Shown here: piece by piece, positions 35,991 to 48,565 of the stretch
How the letters are laid out: every line of letters starts with the position of its first letter
Position numbering within the stretch: the first letter of the stretch is position 1
From: Octopus vulgaris
Taxonomy: Eukaryota
Reading direction: 5' to 3'
DNA: 64,000 nt
Assembly: GCA_951406725.2 (NCBI GenBank)
Contig: OX597830.1
Span: 1,488,001 to 1,552,000, forward strand
Notes under the pieces: model-generated
The model's input: only the letters and a program-made list of their open reading frames with translations
Told to the model about the DNA's origin: nothing
Databases searched by the model: none
Translations under genes and position numbers: made by a program

Positions 35991-36229
35991 GTTTAGATAT
36001 ATATATGTATATATATTTAATAATAATCAGAAATATTAAATTTCTAAATATCTCATAGAGATATGTACGGTGGTGGGGGTGATAGAATGGTTGTATACTG
36101 TCAATTTAACGTGACAGTAGGGGATTACACCACCGCTGTTTAGCCCTAGGAAGCATCTACGCTTCCTGTCGGCTTCGACACATTTCCTGTGTCCTTATAT
36201 ATTTATGAAGGGAAGACAAATACTCCCAA

Positions 36230-36311
36230 CAGCTAGGCCTGCATCTAGAGACACGCATGTTTCAGGGTCTTTGCCCATCATCGGTCTAGAGTAGCAGAAG
36301 CCTGCTAGCTG
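36230..36311 (-). ncRNA. Minimal type I hammerhead ribozyme
   Basis: TCTAGA-CCGATGA-TGGGCAAAGACCCT-GAAAC-ATGCGT-GTC^TCTAGA. Stem I extends through CTGC/GCAG, GGC/GCC and CAGCTAG/CTAGCTG. Confidence 0.8.
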
Positions 36312-36658
36312 CAGATGAAATCTTTATTAAAATCATGCGATTTTACATAGAATTGGACATCACAAGACAAACAATTACAAAGAATATTATGAGAGTTCGA
36401 ATGATACTTAAAAATTATAAAAATTTAATTATAATGTAACTTGAACGAAAACTTGGCTTACTTTCGCCTTTATAACGAGAACTTTAGTGCGTGTTTTTTT
36501 TTTAACAAAAAAAAATCATTAGACATTTTACATATGTTAATCATTTTCATTTTACATATGTTAATATGTAAAATGAAAAGGAATGGGAAGTGCCGGTTTC
36601 GAATTTTGAACCCGGCAGCTTATAAGGCCCAGCAACTAATTTTTCCTTTCTTCGATGA

Positions 36659-39600
36659 TTAAGCTGGGTTACTAACAACCACCTTTCTCATCACATCCTT
36701 CCAACGTTTCATATACTCTTTCTTTGGCAGGCTCTTCAGATGATATCTGAAGTATTTTAACAAACCGGAGCCAGAGACAAAGGATCCTGTCACTAAACCT
36801 TCCATTCTGGTTCTCCACACACACTCTTTCAGAACTGTCACCGTACAGTAAAAACAAGCCTTACCTTCCTTTGGGAGTCCAGTTGGCGTTATCATCTTTA
36901 TCATAGATCCAGCCGACAGCTGTACTCGTCCCAGATACGACATGTGTTCAATGTAACTAATCAAGCTTGACAGCTCCCGACATTGTACAAAAGCGTGTTG
37001 AACGGTTTCATCGTCCAACCCACATCTTGGACATGTCGGTGGCACTGACATTCCGTGCCTGGATAACTCCTTGCGAACAGGTAATGCATTCCTATAGCAC
37101 TGCCAGGTCAGGGATTTTTGGTAATTGTCCAAATACCCCGGCCTGAAAGTCTTCTTAAACAGGTTGGAGAGTTGATTCTCATCGAACCCCAGAGCCCCTC
37201 CTAGGACGTCGTCATTTTTTGCCTCTACCAGCCCTCTATAGAACACCGAGGTGGTATTCCCGCTGCCGGCCTTGCCCACCTTGTGGATTAGCCAGAGTGC
37301 CTGTCGGCACTCCTTCTGCCATAAAGTCAGGTTAGTCTTTTAATGAAACCGGGTTTAAATCTCTCCATAGAGGCCGGTCGCGGGAAGAATTTCTCTGCCA
37401 GCGGACTCCACACCTTATCACCCTCCAGGTGACACCAGAGATGTTTCAGCCTCAACGCATGCCTGCGCATCATTAGCCGAGGCATCCCCAGCCCACCCTT
37501 TAGCGGTTCCTGGCAACACGCGGAGCGTCTTACAAGTGGCTTTCCTCCTTTCCACAAAAAGCGGAAAAGGAGTCGTTCCAACTTGTTTAACCACGAATCG
37601 GGGCAAGGCACGACGGTCAGGCGGTAGGTGACGACAGAGGCTATAAACATCTGTACCACCTCCGCCCTCCCTTTCAATGAAAGATGCCTTCCGGACCACT
37701 TCCGTACTATAGCTTCTACCTTGTTCGCTACCTCGCTCCAATTCTTCTCCGTCTGGGAGTCTGGACCAAACCAAACTCCGAGCAATTTAACAGGACCATC
37801 TGTCCAGTGTCCAACAACACTGGACAATATCGGCTTGTTCCTCCAGGTGCCGAGGCGCAAACCGGTGGACTTGTCCTTGTTAACTTCGTATCTTCGGAGA
37901 GCACCTTCTACACGAGTTAGCTGTGCTTCGTTGGACACAATGTGGGTGACGTCATCCGCATAGGCAGAAATAGACTTACCGCATCCGATTTCATTAGGGT
38001 TGCTTCCCAACTTCTCCAACTTCCGCAGCAATGGCTCAAGAGCCAAAACATACAGGAGCGGGGACAAGGGACACCCTTGACGAACTGAACGCTTGATCGA
38101 AAGCGGCTCCGTTAGGTAACCGTTTATCTGGATTTTGGACTTGATGCCGCTGTACATAGCTGAGATCCACCCGCAAAAGCCAGTGCCCAGCCCAGCCGCC
38201 CCGAGGACAGTCGCGACGTACCGATGGTCTACCCTATCGAACGCTTTACTTTGGTCTAAACGGACCAATGCCCCTCCTTTGCCGGCTAATTTCCCGACCT
38301 TGTCTATAGTGTAGCGGAGAAGGTGAAGATTATCCTGGATCGACCTGCCTGGGATTGCACATTTCTGTGGCATCCCGACAAGTTTCTCCACGACAGCCGT
38401 CAACCTTTTTGCTAACACCTTGGCCAAAATCTTAAACTCTACATTAAGTAGAGTTATGGGCCTATAATTACTAATCCTATCCCTCTTGTTCGGGTCTTTC
38501 TGGACCAGCGTCACAACTCCCCGGCTCACAGAACTGGAAATCCTCCCATTATGTTGCCAGTTCGCATAGACTCCCGCCAGTATATCTCCGAACAAGTCCG
38601 GCATACAACAATAGAACTCATTGGGCTGACCATCTAACCCCGGCGACTTTTCCCCGGCGCAACCGGCCATAACCTCTCTTACCTCCGTGGGAGAGATCGA
38701 TCCTTCACAGCATTCCGCCTCACGTGTCGAGAGCCGCGGCCCACCGGCTAGGAAGTCCTTTAAGGCCTCCCCTCGCTCGAGCGGACCGCCATCCCCAAAC
38801 AACCAGCATTTGTCCATAGATCTTGCGATCCTGCTCGTCAGTGAAAGACCTTAATACAGTACTTTTTGCCCTCCTGACTCTCCTCACGACGGGCCCATCC
38901 GGCAACGTTAATACCTTCTCATTTTCCTGTACGTAACTTAGCTCTGACTCTACACCCCTCATGCTTGGCGTTGAGGTGACGGTACAAGACCGTTCTCGCT
39001 GCTAACACTCCAGATGTACAGCCAGATTCCATTGCCTCGTCTAAGATCTTAACGAATTCGCCCTATCTAAACTTAGCTGCTTGCTAAATCTAATGGACTC
39101 CAAACGGATGGCTCTTTTGAGGGCGAGCCACCATCTATTATTAATGATGGTGCCACATAATGCCCTCTGGACTAATTCCTTAATCCGGCTGCGGAAAGTT
39201 TCACCAGTCAAAATAGACTTGTTCATTTTCCAGTACCCGGGACCCTGTCTATGGCATTTATCTACCTGTACCTCACACGTCACAAGTTTGTGATCCGTGT
39301 AAGGCACAACAGAAAATTGTGGACAGCTAACACTATTCTTATCTCGTTCCTTAACAAATACTCTATCTATGTACGATCTGCGTGAGCCGTCGTTATTACT
39401 CAACGTCCACTGTAGAAAGTTCGGCTTATCCAGTCGAAAACGGTCTACTAGATTAAAGCTCTCTAGTAGAGCCTTGAGGCAAGGATTCCCTTTCCTATCG
39501 TTCGAGCCTACACTATCAACCCGCGCAGCGAGAATAGTGTTGAAATCCCCTACCAAGACTACCGTTTTAGACGTCACTAGAAAGTGATCCAGGTCCCGAT

Positions 39601-39949
39601 AAAAACCGGTTTGCCCACACCCATTAGGAGCGTAGACAGCTACCAACCTGAAAGACTGCTTACTCACGTGAGTCACAACCAGCCTACCTTCTGAGTCCAG
39701 AAAGACAGTACTTACCTGTAAGTCCAAGTTATTCCTGATAAAGACTGCCACGCCTGCACCTCACCCTCGGCTAGGAGAAATAAATTTCTTGTAGCCATTG
39801 AGAAGTGGCGAGAACGATTATGGTCCTTTCATCTTGGACTCGGTGACAATAGCCACATCGATTCTATGTGAAATTAGGTCGTCCAGCAAACAAGCCTGTT
39901 TCCATTTCGACCCCATTCCACCCACATTTATACAGCCTAACTTAATCAT
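36659..39949 (-). pseudogene. ORF2: AP-like endonuclease, reverse transcriptase and C-terminal Cys/His domain (frameshifted)
   Basis: APE: MIKLGCINVGG...DVAIVTE, VYAPN, VGDFN, SYIDRVF, TDHK. RT: KSPGLDG, NYRPITLLN, LDQSKAFDRVDH, RQGCPLSP, YADD. C-terminus: CPRCGLDDETVQHAFVQC. Confidence 0.93.
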
Positions 39950-39971
39950 CGAAGAAAGAAAAATAATTTAC

Positions 39972-41457
39972 TTACGGTTGCGAGAGGGAGCATGACAGGT
40001 TATGTCCGCCTGCCTTCCCCACACTCTCCGTTGTTGCTGGGTATTTCACCGGCGTTGCCACCGGGCTCTGGGTTGGTGTGGCTGCCGGGCTGATATGCAC
40101 TCTACCAGCTATCACCTTCTGGGTGAGATCCTTAATGAAACCGTCCTTTACATGTTGGAAGAGTCTCTCCTTCCATTCCTCCTCGCCGACTCTTGCGTAT
40201 CTCCATTCCGGGTCCTTCTCTGTCGTTTTAAAGCATTTGATTTCAGTTCTTGTTTTCACGAACCTCACAACTCTCTCATTTCTCGTATTATAAGCTATAC
40301 ACTTATCATTTGATTTAAACCCTTTTAAAGTTGGGGTGGGGTTTATTGAATTGCTGTCCTACAAACGTAGTACCAGCGGGATGGGATTGGAAAATTTTTT
40401 TATATTGATTTTGTTTTTTGTTTGGGGTGGAGAGTCAGGGTATTAGATTTTTTCTTTTTTGTTTGTCACAGTCGTATATTCCATTTCTTGTTGCTCATTT
40501 TTTTTGCTAGATTATTTTCCTCTTCCTTTTCTTTTTCGTTTTGTTTTTCATTCTTTTTGTCCTCTTTTTGAAATTCAGTTTGTTTTTTCTTTTCCGTGTT
40601 TTCTTTTGTTGTTGCTGTGTTGTCTGCTTTGTTGTTCTCTGTGTTTTTCACAGCGTTTTGAGGCAGGGCGTTGACCATTTTTTTTTTCGTACATACGGAG
40701 CGAACATGGCCTTTTTGCCCGCTCTTGAAACATCTGGGCCTGCGTCCCTCTACCGATACACGTATGGTATGCCCCTCCCCCACGAAGACCCTATCTGGCA
40801 AGCTTTCCTGCGTAGAATTTTCTACTTGAATAATCATCTCAAGCTGTTGGCCTTTCCAGTTTGTTGCCTCTTTCTTCCTCATGCTCAATATTGTTAATTT
40901 TTCCTCCACATCAAATATGACCGCTGTTGCCGCCCACATCACTTCGTATCCCTTTGGTATGTCCTCAATTGTAACTTTCGCCGTCCTACGCCCCAAATAC
41001 AAGGGAAGTAATAGGATATGTTCGCTTTTCAATGTTTGTGTTGACATTTCCTTCGCTACATCAGCCGACTCGAAATGAGCTTCTTTTGTAGCGCTTCTCG
41101 CACCTCGGCTGACGTAGCGAACCTTACTCCATATTGGCGCCATACACCTTTCGACTATATCATTTTTCACGTCGGTTATTCATTTTTCTTTTATATAATA
41201 TACTTTGTAAGTAACCGTCTTTTCTCGAATTGCCTCCATAGTTTCAGGGGGCGGTATTAATCGCGTTTCTTCACCGTTTTTTTAAAATTAACTTTCTGAA
41301 CTGGAAGAACTTTTCCATAGCCACTTCCAGCTCTACCACGTTGCCGCCTACGGCGTTCTGAGAAACTTGGTTTTGCCTGTGTAACCTTTTGTTTGTTATC
41401 GGTTGTGCCTTCTCCCATCTCGAGAAAATCTTTTTTTGAATTTAAGCCAAGTTCCAT
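39972..41457 (-). pseudogene. ORF1 of the Tx1-like LINE (Gag-like, zinc knuckle; frameshifted)
   Basis: LLLPLYLGRRTAKVTI and VSVEGRRPRCFKSGQKGHVRSVC (second Cys mutated), followed by a K/E/N-rich region. Confidence 0.85.
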
Positions 41458-42134
41458 TATAGAAAACAAGAAACTTGTCACAAATGACAAGGGAATTTTT
41501 CAAAAATAACCTATACAGGTTAACAGTTCACACAAAAAACAAAGAAATTTTCTACCCCGAAGGGCGAAAATTACTGAGTCAAAAAACAACAGTTCAAAAA
41601 TTTTTCACGTGTAACACAAAACAAAAAGGCAAACGGAATCGAACTCACACAACGGCTTGCAGCAACAGAAAAATGTTTGACGTATTCCGAGGAAAAATTC
41701 AAAAGGCCTGCTAGCTGCAGATATCTGTCTCGACTTCGTGAATATATATATCTAATCTTCAGTGAAGTTTATTCACTGATCACCAAAATCAGAAATATTA
41801 AATTTCTAAATATCTCATAGAGATATGTACTGTGATGGGGCGATAGAATGGTTGGGGGTATTTGTCTCCCCTTCGTAAATATATAAGGACACAGAAAATG
41901 TGTCGAAGCCGACAGGAAGCGTCGATGCTTCCTAGGGCTAAACAGCGGTGGTGTAACCCGTTACTGTCACGTTAAATTGACAGTATACAACCAGTCTATT
42001 ATCCCACCACCGTACATATCTTTATGAGATATTTAAAAATTTAATATTTCTGATTTTGGTAATCAGTGAATAAACTTCACTGAAAATTAGATACATATAT
42101 TTACGAAGTCGAGACAGATATCTGCACCTAGCAG

Positions 42135-43807
42135 TTTTTTTGGTGTCGGTTATTTTGTGTTACGGTTATTGTGTATCGCGGTTGTGAGTTCGAATTCGTT
42201 GCTGGAGGACGTGGTGAATTTTATTTGGAGATTTTGAAAATGCAAGACCAGACGTATGCGAGAGCAGCAGGCAGAGGCCTGGTTGCGAGTGAACTAGAAA
42301 TGGAAGAAGTGGTAGTCGAGAAGAAGACTTTAGAAAAATATTTCGACAGTTTGAAGAGGGAGGGTGACTGCGTGAGAGTCACACCGTCCGAAGAAGAAGA
42401 AAACAACGCGGAGAAACGTATGATAACATACAGGACATGGTGTGTGGCGTCAAGAAAAATAGAAGTAGCAGAGACGGAAGAAATAGAGAAATGTCTGCAA
42501 GGAATTGAGGGTGAACCTACCTTTTTCAACAGAGGAAGAAAATATGCCACAGTGGTGGTACACTTTAAAAATGAAAATGAAGCAAGAAAGAATGCGACAA
42601 AAATTCTGAAATCTGAAAGTTGGACATTATTACCTAGTTACTGCGGAAAGAGGGCAGTCAGAATAAGAATTAGTAGGATTTCGCCCGAACTTAACATGGA
42701 GAGGATACTAGCGGCAGTAGTTTTCAACTGCAAGGAAAGTGTGGAGGTGTTGAAGGTGGAGAGTCAACAGAAGTTAAATGGTGGGGATATGCGGTGCAGG
42801 TTCTGGCACATATAACCGTGCCAGACCTGTACAACATCCTGGAGGCGTTGGTCTTCCTTGATGAGACACGGCTTAGAGTCGTGGTAGAGGGAAGACCCCC
42901 AGTCTGTTATAATTGCAAATTAAGAGGCCACATGAAGGATGTGTGCCCGCTGGAGAAAACGATAGCACCGGAGGCTGTAACGAAGGAGTGGAAAGATACG
43001 TGTGTGGAGGAGGGAGAAGTGCAGAAGGAAACGAAAGCAGTGGAGGCGCAAACGGAGGAGCAGCTAATTGAGGATGTGGAAGAAGAACGTGCAAGTGCAG
43101 AGGATGAAAGAACAGAAGATAGGAAGAGAACAAGGGTGGAATCACCACCGAAAGTTCTAAAAAATAAAAAAATAAAAAGCAAGATAACAGAAGAAAAAGA
43201 AGAGAGAACGTGCAAAGAAAAGGACGAACAGACAATGACAGAGGTAAATCTAGAATGGAGAAAAAAAGTGAGAGAACAGTTGGATGTTTGTAAAAAGGGA
43301 AAAAGACCTGTAGGAAAATACCTGAAAGTATACGTGTTGTACGTCAAAGACACAGAAATGGAAAAAAGACTTGCAGGTAGGAAAGGATTGATTAGGGTTA
43401 AATTACACCCAGAACTGCATGATGACGATGTGAAAGGGGTTGTTGTAGATAAAGGAAAATTTGCTAAATTGAAAGTATGTTTGATGAGGTTTATTTAGCG
43501 CATTATGTACGTTATGACAATTTGCCAAATGTGATAGACCAGATGGAATTAACAAAGTACATGACGGACGAACGTCCAACAGAACTGGAATATATGTAAT
43601 TGTAAAATTGTAACATTGTAAATTGTAAAATGTAAAATTGTATTTTAAACGGAACTGCGAGTTTGGGGGGCTCGTAAGCCGTTCCATCTCACTCATTACA
43701 CATAATTCATCTTCCTTTCATATTTTATTTTTTACTTTATGTACCCCACGTCCCGTCTTGTAATGTCCCCTCTGCATTCCGGCCATCGTGCCCATAATAA
43801 AGAGATA
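42135..43807 (+). mobile_element. ORF1-only non-autonomous retroelement, copy A
   Basis: Bounded by ATCTGCACCTAGCAG at 42120-42134 and 43808-43822. Ends ATAATAAAAGAGATA. No ORF2. Confidence 0.88.
42240..43599 (+). pseudogene. ORF1 / Gag-like zinc-knuckle protein (frameshift near 42770, premature stop at 43498)
   Basis: MQDQTYARAA..., YCGKRAVRIRISRISPE, VVVEGRPPVCYNCKLRGHMKDVCP, RKRTRVESPPK, LIRVKL. Homology to copy B continues to TDERP. Confidence 0.85.
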
Positions 43808-43822
43808 ATCTGCACCTAGCAG

Positions 43823-45444
43823 TTTTTTTGGTGTCGGTTATTTTGTGTTACGGTTATTGTGTATCGCGGTTGTGAGTTCGAATTCGTTGGTGGAAGCTGT
43901 TACGGCGTGGTGAATTGTTGGAGGTTTTTTTTTTTCGAGTATGCAAGCCCAAACTTATGCGGGAGCAGCAGGCAAGGGCCTGGCTTCGAGCGAACTGCAG
44001 TTGGAGAAAGTGGTCGTCGAAAAGGAGAGCCTGGAGGAATACTTCAACAGTTTCAAGAAGGAGGGTGACTGCCTGAGAGTCACACTACCAGAAGAAGAAG
44101 TGAAAGAAGCAGAGAGGCGTATAGTGACATATAGAACGTGGAACGTGGCTTCGAAGAAAATAGAAGTGGTAGAGGTGGAGGAAATTGAGAGGTGTTTGCA
44201 GGAGATTGAAGAAGAAGCTACCTTCTATAATAGAGGTAGAAAGTACACGACGGTGGTAGTTCATTTTGAGAACAAAACTGAAGCAAAGAGGAGCGCTACG
44301 AAACTATTGAAAAGTGAAAAATGGCTATTGTGGAAGACGGGCAGTGAGAATAAGAATCAGCAAAATTTCACCAGAGTTGAAAATGGAGCGAATTATAGCA
44401 GCAACAATATTTAACTGCAAGGAGAATGTGGAGATATTAGAGATAGAAAAGTCGAAGGAAGTAAAGTGGTGGGGTTATGCAGTGCAGGCTTTGGTACACA
44501 TAACCATGTCAGACATTTATAACATCCCAGAAGAGTTGGTGTTCCCCGACGAGACACGACTCAGAGTTGTGGTAGAGGGGAGACCCCCAGTGTGCTACAC
44601 ATGTAAGATTAGAGGCCACATGATGGATGTGTGTCCGAAAAAAAAAGTACAAGAGGAGATGATAACATTGGAGGCTCTGACAGAAGAATTGCAAATGGCG
44701 GATGTAGAAGAAGAAATTTTGAATACAGATAATGTGGAAAGTGGTGACGAGTTGGTGAAGGAGGAAGAAAAGGAAAGAACAGAAGGAAAAGAAGATAGAA
44801 AGAGAACGCGGGTGGAATCACCACCTAAAGTACAAATAAAGAAAAAAGGGAAAAAGAAAACTACCGACGAGATAGAGGATCGAACGTACGAAGAGAAGGA
44901 TGCAGAAGCGAAAGCGAGTGAACCGGCAAATTTAAAGGCAGGGGAAGAATGGGACAGAAGAGTGGAAGAGCAGTTAAAAGTATGTAAGGAAGGAGGAAGA
45001 CCCAAGGGAAAAAATTTCAAAGTGGTAATATTGTACATGAAGGACAAAGAAATCGAAAAGAAGCTAGAAAAGTTTAATCAGAGTAAAGTTAAACCCAAAA
45101 ATATTTGATGATCAAGTGAAGGCGGCGATTGTGGAAAAAGAGACAATGAGGAAATTGAAAAGTGTGTTTTCGGCTGTATGCGAAATGCAATATATCCGTT
45201 ACGACAGTTTGCCAGCTATTGTAGCCCAGGTGAGGTTACTCGATCACATTACAGATGAACGCCCAGTATAACAAAATTGTATTTTAAATGAAACTGCGAG
45301 CTTGGGGAACTCGTAAGACATTCCATTAACCCATTATAAATAATTCATTATCATACCATACTTTTCGATTTTTTTAATTATATTTACCACATGTCCTGTT
45401 TTGTAATGTCCCCTCTTAGTTCGGGCTATATAATAAAGATTTCC
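43823..45444 (+). mobile_element. ORF1-only non-autonomous retroelement, copy B
   Basis: Bounded by TCTGCACCTAGCAG (43809-43822) and TCTGCAGCTAGCAG (45445-45458). Ends TAATAAAGATTTCC, like the Tx1 LINE. Confidence 0.88.
43941..45271 (+). pseudogene. ORF1 / Gag-like zinc-knuckle protein (frameshifts near 44325 and 45070)
   Basis: MQAQTYAGAA..., VVVEGRPPVCYTCKIRGHMMDVCP, RKRTRVESPPK. The last frame reads LIRVKLNPKIFDD...ITDERPV*. Confidence 0.85.
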
Positions 45445-45448
45445 TCTG

Positions 45449-45530
45449 CAGCTAGCAGGCTTCTGCTACTCTAGACCGATGATGGGCAAAGACCCTGAAA
45501 CATGCGTGTCTCTAGATGCAGGCCTAGCTG
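45449..45530 (+). ncRNA. Minimal type I hammerhead ribozyme
   Basis: TCTAGA(45470-75)-CCGATGA-TGGGCAAAGACCCT-GAAAC-ATGCGT-GTC(45510)^TCTAGA. Quasi-palindromic stem III. Core identical to the copy at 36.25 kb. Confidence 0.8.
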
Positions 45531-45989
45531 TTGGGAGTATTTGTCTTCCCTTCATAAGGACACAGGAAATGTGTCGAAGCCGACAGGAAGCGTCGATGCT
45601 TCCTAGGGCTAAACAGCGGTGGTGTAATCCCCTACTGTCACGTTAAATTGACAGTATACAACCATTCTATTTAATAATATATTATTATTAATATTAGGAA
45701 ATCAATATTAAAACACATCATAAAGATGTACATGTATGAAAAATGATTGTTGTATTAAAAATAAATAAATAAATATAAATATATATAAAACTATATGTAA
45801 ATATGTATAAGTATAAATATATAATGTCTATGACAGTTTAAATGTTTTGAATTAATTATTTAAATCATCTTACGATCGCTTCGCAGGAGGATTTTGTTAA
45901 AGAAGTTTTGTTAAACGAACTTAAGACATAAAAACTTCTTGAGAATAGACGTTCCTTCCTTCATGCGAAGAAAATATCTCTTTTGCATC

Positions 45990-46302
45990 TTACTTTTTTG
46001 GTCACTTAAATATACTGCATTTTGTGGCATTATTTCAAGCCAGTCGGCTTTTTTGCGCAAACTGCACGAGCATTTTTCTCGTGTACGCGTAGAATCGATC
46101 GCAACGGTAGGAGTAGTTGCGCGTACAAATGCACGTTCCCACGGCTTTATTGATCGCATTCTCACCTGGAATCGATTTTTGTAATCTTTTCAAGACTTAT
46201 AAACGCCCTGATACCGTCGGTATCTACATAGCAAATTTGAACGCAATCGATGGAGGATGCCCGAGATCCTAGAAGACACACACAGAGACAGAGCGAACGG
46301 AT

Positions 46303-46305
<3 letters not shown>
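45990..46305. mobile_element. Probable Helentron/HINE-like non-autonomous element end
   Basis: Ends ...AAATTTGAACGCAATCG...CACACACAGAGACAGA...TTTTATATA, the same architecture as the terminus at 55.07-55.16 kb. Confidence 0.4.
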
Positions 46306-47778
<1,473 letters not shown>

Positions 47779-48565
47779 AGACGATGTAACCAAGGCTATA
47801 GATGAAATGAAAACAGACTCAGCTACTGGCCCCGATGGATTCCCGGCAATCCTCCTAAAAGCATGTAAGAGAGTCCTAGCAAGACCACTGCAGTTCCTCT
47901 TTCAGAGATTCCTTGCAGCTGGCAAACTTCCAGGAAAACTGAAGGAAGGTAAAATATGCCCCATTCATAAAGGAGGTAGCAGAGCGGAAGCCAAGAACTA
48001 TAGACCTATCTCTCTGACCTCACACATCAGCAAGGTCATGGAACGAATAGTCAGAAGGAAGCTGATCACCTTCCTTGAAGAGAATGACTTGCTGCCCGAC
48101 ACCCAACATGGTTTCCGACAAGGGAGAAGCTGCTTAACTCAGCTCCTACAACACTATGACTGGGTGCTGAAACGGCTGCTCAACCACTCAAATGTGGAAG
48201 TGATATATCTCGACTTTGCAAAGGCCTTTGATAAAGTCGATCATGGAATGATATGTCACAAACTGCGTGATCTCAACATAGTTGGAAAACTGGGAGAATG
48301 GCTTCATGACTTTCTGAAGGATAGAAATCAGGTGGTAGTAGCCAATGGGGCCACCTCCATTAACACACAAATAGTGAGCGGTGTTCCGCAGGGCACTGTC
48401 CTGGGACCACTACTGTTCATAATGGCCCTCTCAGACATGCCCTCAGCCACGCAGAGAGCCACGATCACAAGTTATGCAGACGATACAAAAGTTTCACAGG
48501 CAATACAGAACCCTGAGGACACTAAACACCTGCAATGTGAGCTGGACGAAATATACAAGTGGCTA
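47779..48565 (+). mobile_element. CR1-like LINE reverse transcriptase fragment (open frame 47807-48601)
   Basis: GPDG, NYRPISLTS, QHGFRQGRSCLTQLL, YLDFAKAFDKVDH, SGVPQGTVLGPLLF, YADD. Truncated at both ends. Confidence 0.88.

Follow-up and report, generated by a model that had tools for sequence, protein, structure and literature searches.

Long interspersed nuclear elements (LINEs) of the Tx1 clade often insert at preferred targets, those named in the accessible parts of two surveys being Tx1D, U2 and microsatellites (PMC4494074, PMC4640811), and the choice of target is usually ascribed to the endonuclease (PMC4494074). Here we describe a Tx1-like LINE and two satellites, which carry only the first open reading frame (ORF1), in a hammerhead ribozyme repeat within a 64,000-nucleotide stretch of Octopus vulgaris DNA (contig OX597830.1, positions 1,488,001 to 1,552,000; G000:C17:1488001-1552000; hereafter the window). 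Across this genome (2.8 Gb in 227 contigs, from which all targeting counts are taken), such elements insert at one exact position, with target-site duplications (TSDs), in several families of hammerhead repeat. We think it probable that these Keno-related Tx1 LINEs and their satellites insert at the TATA-driven RNA polymerase II (Pol II) starts of hammerhead retrozymes and borrow the promoter.

Keno, the U2-specific Tx1 LINE as described in PMC4494074 and PMC4640811, likewise has an ORF2 with an APE endonuclease, a reverse transcriptase (RT) and a zinc finger, a TSD of about 15 bp and a precise site near the 5′ end of a multicopy small-RNA unit. Unlike Keno, the elements described here target a mobile ribozyme repeat, enter it at a putative +1 and not at about +37, use many unlike sequences and lack poly(A). 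Xenopus Tx1L, found in the Tx1D piggyBac element (PMC4494074), is also a Tx1 LINE specialised on a transposon, a parasite on a parasite; its target is a single DNA-transposon sequence, whereas here several retrozyme families are used at a promoter-relative position. Insertion defined by position beside a transcription start is known from Dictyostelium TRE5-A and Dp_NLTR-A and from yeast Ty3, and binding of TFIIIB subunits by the TRE5-A ORF1 protein has been reported (PMC5006619). Those elements insert next to Pol III tRNA genes without entering them, whereas the ones here appear to enter the putative Pol II start. The repeat itself resembles non-LTR retrozymes and the pseudo-long terminal repeats (pLTRs) of Penelope-like elements (PLEs) in its 355-nt partial-tandem unit, type I hammerhead, PLE-type ends and inversions, and in the U3-A8 core variants found in sister families of F1, the family in the window.

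R2 and R1/SART1 have a target-derived leader and 3′ read-through. They share with the mechanism proposed here a promoter that is borrowed, an element RNA that includes target sequence, and 5′ joining assisted by homology; R2 has its own 5′ hepatitis delta virus (HDV) ribozyme and a sequence-specific restriction-like endonuclease, whereas here the ribozyme is the target's and lies downstream. HAL1, the "half-L1", is a retrotransposon with ORF1 only. Like the satellites it is non-autonomous, keeps its ORF1 under purifying selection and has a terminal motif in common with its partner LINE; unlike HAL1, the satellites are target-specific, with an ORF1 only 26–33% identical to the partner's. R2, furthermore, depends on flanking transcription, according to the accessible text of PMC4494074.

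Results

Insertions in the window

Three insertions lie in the window, namely the LINE and the stacked satellites A and B (Table 1). A preliminary description, made from the sequence of the window, had already given their coordinates and junctions, to which we add only a refined end of element B at 45443. It had further stated that all three duplicate the same site, run in the direction of the hammerhead strand and use the 5′ strand of the extended stem I as TSD. All of this held: the TSDs are 15–17 bp long and lie 29–38 nt above a type I hammerhead core, and the folds place them in stem I. The core begins 36 nt beyond the terminal AATAAAGA motif of the elements. The proposed ~355-bp repeat unit likewise stands (355–356 bp), whereas its two opposite copies proved to be the arms of one inverted (head-to-head), Penelope-style insertion with an outer TSD of 10–12 bp. 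The arms stop at different unit ends, one short and one long, ~55 nt apart, which matches the Penelope "tail" signature described in PMC11167929.

Elements A and B are 68% identical and thus represent separate insertion events. This divergence, the satellite tree and the relatives of A, which have a different leader of their own and land at F1c sites, rule out a single insertion followed by duplication as the source of the three window junctions, which are independent, as had been proposed. Element A starts with 82 nt identical to the 5′ junction of B, including a private one-base variant that is common to the two 5′ TSD copies of the stack and absent from the 3′ copy, so that A inserted after B, at the promoter-side TSD copy. 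At that insertion point the ribozyme is 1.6 kb away and no stem partner follows, which argues against recognition of a stem or cruciform.

Targeting across the genome

The 3′ flanks were tabulated for 80 matches, the top 40 for the 3′ terminus of the LINE and the top 40 for that of element B. As a result, 35 of the 80 flanks matched the 356-nt unit, all at position 62–63 and on the sense strand, and the targeting is therefore not chance. The hammerhead scan was positive for 17/39 LINE flanks and 28/39 flanks of ORF1-only elements, against 21/456 control windows (L051 and L086, which lacked the terminal motif, were dropped). The exact F1 site occurs 104 times in the genome and is directly preceded by an element terminus in 15 cases.

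LINE matches at least 87.5% identical to the query lay at the F1 site in 12 of 14 cases. Those below 87.5% (n = 26) were distributed among F1 (three), the hammerhead-like F6, F7 and F8 (five), one stack and 17 other places. Six LINE insertions at F1 are independent with both junctions, and two more are in stacks. Among B-type satellites, 34/40 were at hammerhead-repeat sites (21 F1-type, two stacks included, 4 F2, 6 F3, 2 F4 and 1 F9), and the remaining six comprised one at a degenerate hammerhead-like site (F5) and five elsewhere. All 22 ends fetched from 40 scored A-type matches were at hammerhead-repeat sites, 18 directly and 4 stacked. Often two or three elements are stacked at a single site (L154/L368, L159/L367, L158, L161 and L162; also at G000:C1 93.93 Mb, C4 72.77 Mb and C10 26.83 Mb).

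As a control, we took a sister LINE (66% identical, 856 candidates). Among the 30 of 40 matches examined, a downstream hammerhead was found in one copy only, which was the query itself. Ten of these 30 copies (L267–L296) share one non-hammerhead flank and four an ORF-like flank, which may be other specific targets or reflect carriage inside another element. A diverged LINE of this group (L124:760-1400) ends in a (TC)n microsatellite, as Kibi does. Three short copies (L121, L122; L044–L046) share a single insertion point, which lies within the 3′ end of ORF2 of the LINE itself, next to C2H2 zinc-finger genes, 67 of 110 flank ORFs having been scanned.

Position rather than stem sequence

The stem sequence itself, first taken to be the target, is not supported as the determinant, since the equivalent position is used in other, mostly unlike hammerhead families. 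Insertions were found there in F1/F1b/F1c, F2, F3, F4, F6, F7, F8 and F9, and TSDs, mostly of 12–20 bp, in F1, F1b, F2, F3, F4, F5, F6, F7 and F9. The target 16-mers of different families mostly match at 5–9/16 positions at the best of nine shifts, and the closest pairs (F1/F1b/F7, F2/F4 and F3/F4) reach 10–12/16. Distant homology connects F1, F2, F4, F7 and F8; BLAST gave no link for F3, F5, F6 and F9.

What recurs is a TATA-like box at −36 to −22 from the site, present in 7/8 families and about 28–30 nt above the target position. By family, 12/12, 2/3, 1/1, 1/1, 1/1, 1/3, 1/1 and 0/1 sites carried it, after 10 of 49 TSD rows had been dropped as stacked or with less than 40 nt upstream. For comparison, the background was 0.225 (0.31 inside the unit), and the box was present at 2/11 non-hammerhead sites and 0/5 sister-LINE sites. 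In addition, the folded RNA domain of the repeat begins 1–5 nt from the TSD start in every family folded. Promoter or start-site position thus explains the target data better than stem sequence does.

Three further observations concern promoter-like DNA. A short LINE copy (L140 / L307:2200-2780; G000:C5, 15.505 Mb) is a striking case: its clean 17-bp TSD has a canonical TATA box 29 nt above it and two CCAAT boxes upstream of the box, while a hammerhead is absent. Near another copy lies a CpG-rich promoter-like stretch (L137:4100-4440) with YY1-, ETS- and NRF1-like motifs; the TSD call there is doubtful and may be spurious. A short inverted repeat just above the TATA box, seen by eye, recurs across families (42060–42085 and 41757–41782 in the window, and the F2, F3 and F4 flanks) and could serve as a binding site for a factor or form an RNA hairpin.

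Junctions

In two cases, L088 and L256, two additional bases, the last of them G, come after the recipient TSD and lead into another target copy, of donor type, that starts with the first base of the TSD. The donor copy at L256 is F1b and the recipient F2, indicating a one-step jump between families. From these sequences we infer that the extra G would be a reverse-transcribed cap, an event known to leave an extra G in L1. L111 and L074 share a 5′-TSD variant that their 3′ TSDs lack. Long T runs at the satellite starts would stop Pol III, which suggests Pol II. None of the sampled copies has a poly(A) tail; the U2-inserted relatives have one.

At L297, F4 carries a full LINE; the target sequence after it stops exactly at the predicted cut and is joined there to a 5′-truncated satellite. 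This junction, the single hint of self-cleavage, could have arisen by ligation or template switching on cleaved RNA, and U6/L1 provides a precedent for such RNA joining. For L110/L161, an end near the cut site was ruled out, as the repeat continues there. L072 and L074 are leader chimeras, ORF1-only elements with the LINE 5′ end as their first 20–25 nt.

ORF1 and ORF2

The LINEs that target F1 and F4 are 93% identical in the endonuclease (EN) and RT and 78% in ORF1. The EN hairpin-loop, a part of these endonucleases with a known role, has an identical peptide in five other copies, and the window copy carries two substitutions. Between the two groups, the synonymous divergence (dS) is 0.10–0.13 in ORF2 and 0.3–1.1 across ORF1, which points to a recent sharing of ORF2 by lineages that are themselves old and have retained separate targets. 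The target determinant should, from these comparisons, reside in ORF1 or in the untranslated regions (UTRs) and flanks. Positive selection on ORF1 was ruled out, as the ORF1 gap is mostly synonymous.

The ORF1 of the satellites has an RNA-binding and CCHC layout, is intact in L074 (450 aa) and is under purifying selection, with a ratio of nonsynonymous to synonymous rates (dN/dS) of about 0.1–0.2 for the N-terminal and middle parts in most pairs and up to 0.4. With ORF1 only, kept by selection, and ends common to a LINE, the satellites fit the definition of the HAL1 family. The satellite tree requires 14 changes of target family, against a minimum of 6 and a mean of 17.3 after shuffling (P = 0.003), and ORF1-only copies 96–97% identical sit in unrelated families (L098/L100, L092/L101). 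The pattern is one of partial target memory with frequent switching.

Classification of the LINE

The Tx1-like identity proposed earlier is supported by an ORF2 with an N-terminal APE domain, RT and C-terminal zinc finger, and by TSDs of the 10–20 bp typical of Tx1 together with a target preference. A Gag-like ORF1 with a CCHC knuckle, as in Tx1 elements, agrees with this; the zf-CCHC match in the ORF1 of the L133 LINE (E 6e-4) is just under the curated cut-off, and the lead is to ZCCHC3-like RNA-binding domains (score 0.90). The closest relatives show 44–62% identity. Of the relatives from metagenomes, six occupy U2 at about +37, as Keno does, and two occupy 5S; insertion at U2 +1 was ruled out. 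In a midpoint-rooted FastTree phylogeny of 82 RTs, with markers defined solely by their flanks, the clade holding the window RT is sister (0.97) to the clade with all six U2-inserted elements, and the 5S-inserted ones are further off. The octopus LINE differs from Keno in its site, as there was no Rfam match in the window and no U2-like flank, by eye, among 102 own-genome 3′ flanks. No strict hammerhead was found near 80 distant metagenome relatives, many of whose contigs end close to the ORF.

The hammerhead repeat

Rfam at the gathering threshold gave no match in the window, hammerhead included, and the ribozyme is therefore identified by its conserved core and by covariation. Across 59 distinct sites the core hardly varies, and the stem II pair is G-C in 40 and A-U in 17; the motif has the conserved core, three stems and covariation of a type I hammerhead. 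The repeat is a dispersed, non-coding, partial-tandem unit of the 150–450 nt class (2574 first-look candidates) and, as judged by sequence, is a non-LTR retrozyme under the definition in the accessible parts of PMC7229834 and bioRxiv 10.64898/2026.07.22.740005. F2 and F3 carry the U3-A8 core, which is known from PLE ribozymes (PMC4209133).

The target had been suggested to be a retrozyme or Penelope-type repeat. The specialisation on hammerhead repeats of retrozyme type is supported, whereas a direct link to an autonomous Penelope element was not found in the single active PLE family tested, whose pLTR is not homologous to F1–F9 (30 loci, from 150 matches). That family (L309–L338, e.g. G000:C1:37066112-37066681) is very young, with many near-identical copies and 775-aa open frames; ~900 nt beyond the ORF it has a minimal U3-A8 hammerhead, whose core lies ~36 nt below a TATA-like box.

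Annotation of the locus

The features of the locus are collected in Table 1. Beyond these, the LINE 3′ UTR contains a 42-nt imperfect palindrome (36541–36582), and a degenerate TA-rich microsatellite of 1.6 kb adjoins the locus at about 46200–47790. The LINE and satellites have a leader motif in common (42178–42200, 43866–43889 and about 41640–41655), which resembles a Pol III B box.

Table 1. Features of the nested insertion, in window coordinates
Feature	Position	Strand	Details
Outer TSD, left copy	36014..36025		10-12 bp; AT-rich; bounds the whole inverted retrozyme insertion
Left arm, downstream of LINE	36026..36299	-	Hammerhead repeat family F1; stops at long "tail" end
Type I hammerhead motif, left arm	36244..36290	-	Core start 36284; U4C variant; predicted cut 36250/36249
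3′ TSD copy of LINE	36300..36316	-	17 bp; extended stem I 5′ strand
Full-length Tx1-like LINE	36317..41705	-	Frameshifted; terminus AATAAAGA + 4 nt, without poly(A)
ORF2, C-terminal piece	36659..37339	-	zf-RVT, E 1.3e-10
ORF2, reverse transcriptase piece	37327..38850	-	RVT_1, E 4e-28
ORF2, APE endonuclease	39041..39950	-	Open piece 39760-39041; N-terminus frameshifted
LINE ORF1	39972..41499	-	Three pieces; RRM-like region and CCHC knuckle
5′ TSD copy of LINE	41706..41722	-	17 bp; first base 41722 is the putative left-arm transcription start
Left arm, promoter side	41723..41854	-	Up to inversion point
Left-arm TATA-like box	41741..41750	-	28 nt before TSD
Right arm, promoter side	41851..42119	+	Partial tandem unit
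Right-arm TATA-like box	42092..42102	+	28 nt before TSD
TSD copy 1 and B-type leader	42120..42201	+	TSD 42120-42134 (15 bp) plus 67 nt; 82-nt exact duplicate of 43808-43889
Satellite A, ORF1-only	42135..43807	+	HAL1-like; one frameshift
TSD copy 2	43808..43822	+	15 bp
Satellite B, ORF1-only	43823..45443	+	HAL1-like; frameshifted
TSD copy 3	45444..45458	+	15 bp; extended stem I 5′ strand
Right arm, downstream of B	45459..45669	+	Stops at short end, ~55 nt before long "tail" end
Type I hammerhead motif, right arm	45470..45516	+	Core start 45476; predicted cut 45510/45511
Outer TSD, right copy	45668..45679		10-12 bp

Discussion

In the mechanism that we consider probable, the repeat promoter, with its TATA box 28–30 nt upstream, would direct Pol II to begin a capped transcript at roughly the first TSD base. 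An inserted element would thus be transcribed from the borrowed promoter, with a 13–17 nt copy of the old target as the 5′ end of its RNA, and the RNA would read on into the 3′ target copy, where the ribozyme could trim it 61–71 nt past the element end in most families. A component other than ORF2, most likely ORF1p in contact with promoter-bound factors or with the opened start, would then guide the ribonucleoprotein (RNP) to its next start site. Such a protein tether is suggested by analogy with TRE5-A and Ty3 (PMC5006619). Pairing of the carried flanks would help the targeting, as a partial target memory; the APE domain would nick with a loose sequence preference, and target-primed reverse transcription (TPRT) would yield the TSD of 13–20 bp. 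Since the upstream TSD copy would stay under the promoter, later elements would stack upstream of earlier ones.

Several points weigh against this mechanism. The family homology of F1, F2, F4, F7 and F8 means that the TATA count is not eight independent trials; AT-rich DNA gives a TATA background of 22–31%, F9 fails and F6 reaches 1/3. Targeting of promoters in general is unproven, the off-target count (2/11) being equal to background. The active PLE family, with a TATA-like box of its own above the hammerhead, had no insertion in 30 loci. RNA start, cap and cleavage are all inferred from DNA contigs, the one kind of record listed for these sequences, among which none under another organism label spans the LINE junction; the cap-G sign is present at two junctions, and L297 stands alone and has lost the 3′ side of its junction. 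The F1 core is canonical U4 in five sites and U4C in 53/59, a variant reported to lower in vitro activity and yet to suffice in a viroid (PMC3088659). The ORF1 argument compares three F1 with two F4 copies, whose UTRs differ too, and the clustering of targets on the satellite tree also fits partner-specific endonucleases. Finally, 9/15 LINE copies at F1 are without the TSD or promoter side. Two of the TSD-less copies represent one inverted insertion in TA/GA microsatellites and two are segmental duplicates, and several look as if passively carried with the repeat by PLE-type copying. The inverted PLE-style insertion (L115; G000:C16:10909083-10913428) has a LINE 3′ piece and uncleaved repeat in both arms, and its LINE probably hitch-hiked on retrozyme mobilisation.

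The alternative that survives best, unlikely as we find it, is the classic Tx1 scheme, in which the APE domain reads DNA at the base of stem I and LINE sub-lineages co-diverged with the repeat families, each of them moving satellites into the target that it uses itself. This agrees with the usual attribution of Tx1 target choice to the endonuclease (PMC4494074), with the F4 LINEs forming a sub-lineage of their own (97–98% identical), and with the clustering on the satellite tree; many sites open with the same three bases, and the off-target copies L047 and L048 of the window subfamily resemble the F1 site in their first bases. However, F3 and F5 sites lack these three bases, the F1 and F4 lineages have an identical EN loop and a recently shared ORF2, targets are mostly unlike, and A-type and F4-type elements both occupy an F2-type site at L358.

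Slightly less likely again is targeting by RNA-carried memory alone, in which read-through flanks pair with a loosely nicked target and no protein tether is needed. The donor-derived 5′ TSD variants, leader remnants, missing poly(A) tails and tree clustering all speak for a contribution of this kind, as do tail bases carried into off-target 3′ junctions. Memory alone cannot explain one-step jumps between unrelated families at the same relative base (L256; L098/L100, L092/L101), and it probably acts as a helper within the promoter-based mechanism.

Recognition of a DNA hairpin or cruciform of the extended stem I, nicked at its base, is improbable: the stem covaries and starts 1–5 nt from the insertion in every family folded, yet element A, like other elements in stacks, entered at a TSD copy without a downstream stem partner, and the bulged, G-U rich stem suits RNA rather than DNA. 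Most improbable of all is that the junctions are the work of Penelope machinery, whose GIY-YIG nick or RT template switching at this position would be used by the LINE or would mimic it, for although the repeats have PLE-type ends, inversions and microsatellite sites, an active PLE is present and TSD-less composites of LINE and repeat look PLE-carried (L115, L116, L130, L131), the clean TSDs of 13–20 bp, the intact promoter side in most satellites and 6/15 F1 LINE copies, the distance of the site from the repeat's own two 3′ ends, the sister LINE that was not captured and the preference of PLE nicking for AT-rich DNA (PMC11167929) all oppose it.

Beyond the promoter-based mechanism itself, a bolder extension can be offered as a tentative possibility, less likely than not to hold in full. 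Here an animal LINE would find its target by its place on a Pol II promoter and not through sequence recognition by the endonuclease: ORF1p, that of the satellites included, would tether the RNP to the Pol II starts of retrozymes, and the elements would live on a captured promoter and on their victim's hammerhead 3′ end. A lineage aimed at U2 would have turned to another kind of small-RNA transcription unit, in a system of three tiers: PLE, retrozyme, and the LINE together with its satellites.

A full-text literature search found no description of a LINE that targets hammerhead repeats, with the limit that older Tx1/HAL1 papers and Repbase Reports could hold one. The accessible parts of PMC7229834, PMC4209133 and bioRxiv 10.64898/2026.07.22.740005 make no mention of LINE insertion into such repeats, and the accessible main text of PMC13282606 mentions neither hammerhead, ribozyme nor nested. 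Hammerhead repeats appear to be a new target class, possibly with a new targeting mode as well.

The aim of target-specific LINEs is usually credited to their endonuclease, and here one nearly unchanged endonuclease serves many unlike sequences with single-base precision. What else aims a LINE thereby becomes directly testable, with ORF1p or the RNA flanks indicated, and the proposed mechanism gives a reason for the retention of ORF1 in ORF1-only (HAL1-like) elements. A position-guided TPRT system would also be of interest for gene-insertion tools. For the retrozymes of animals, the insertions would map the promoters, and they may record hammerhead cleavage in vivo.

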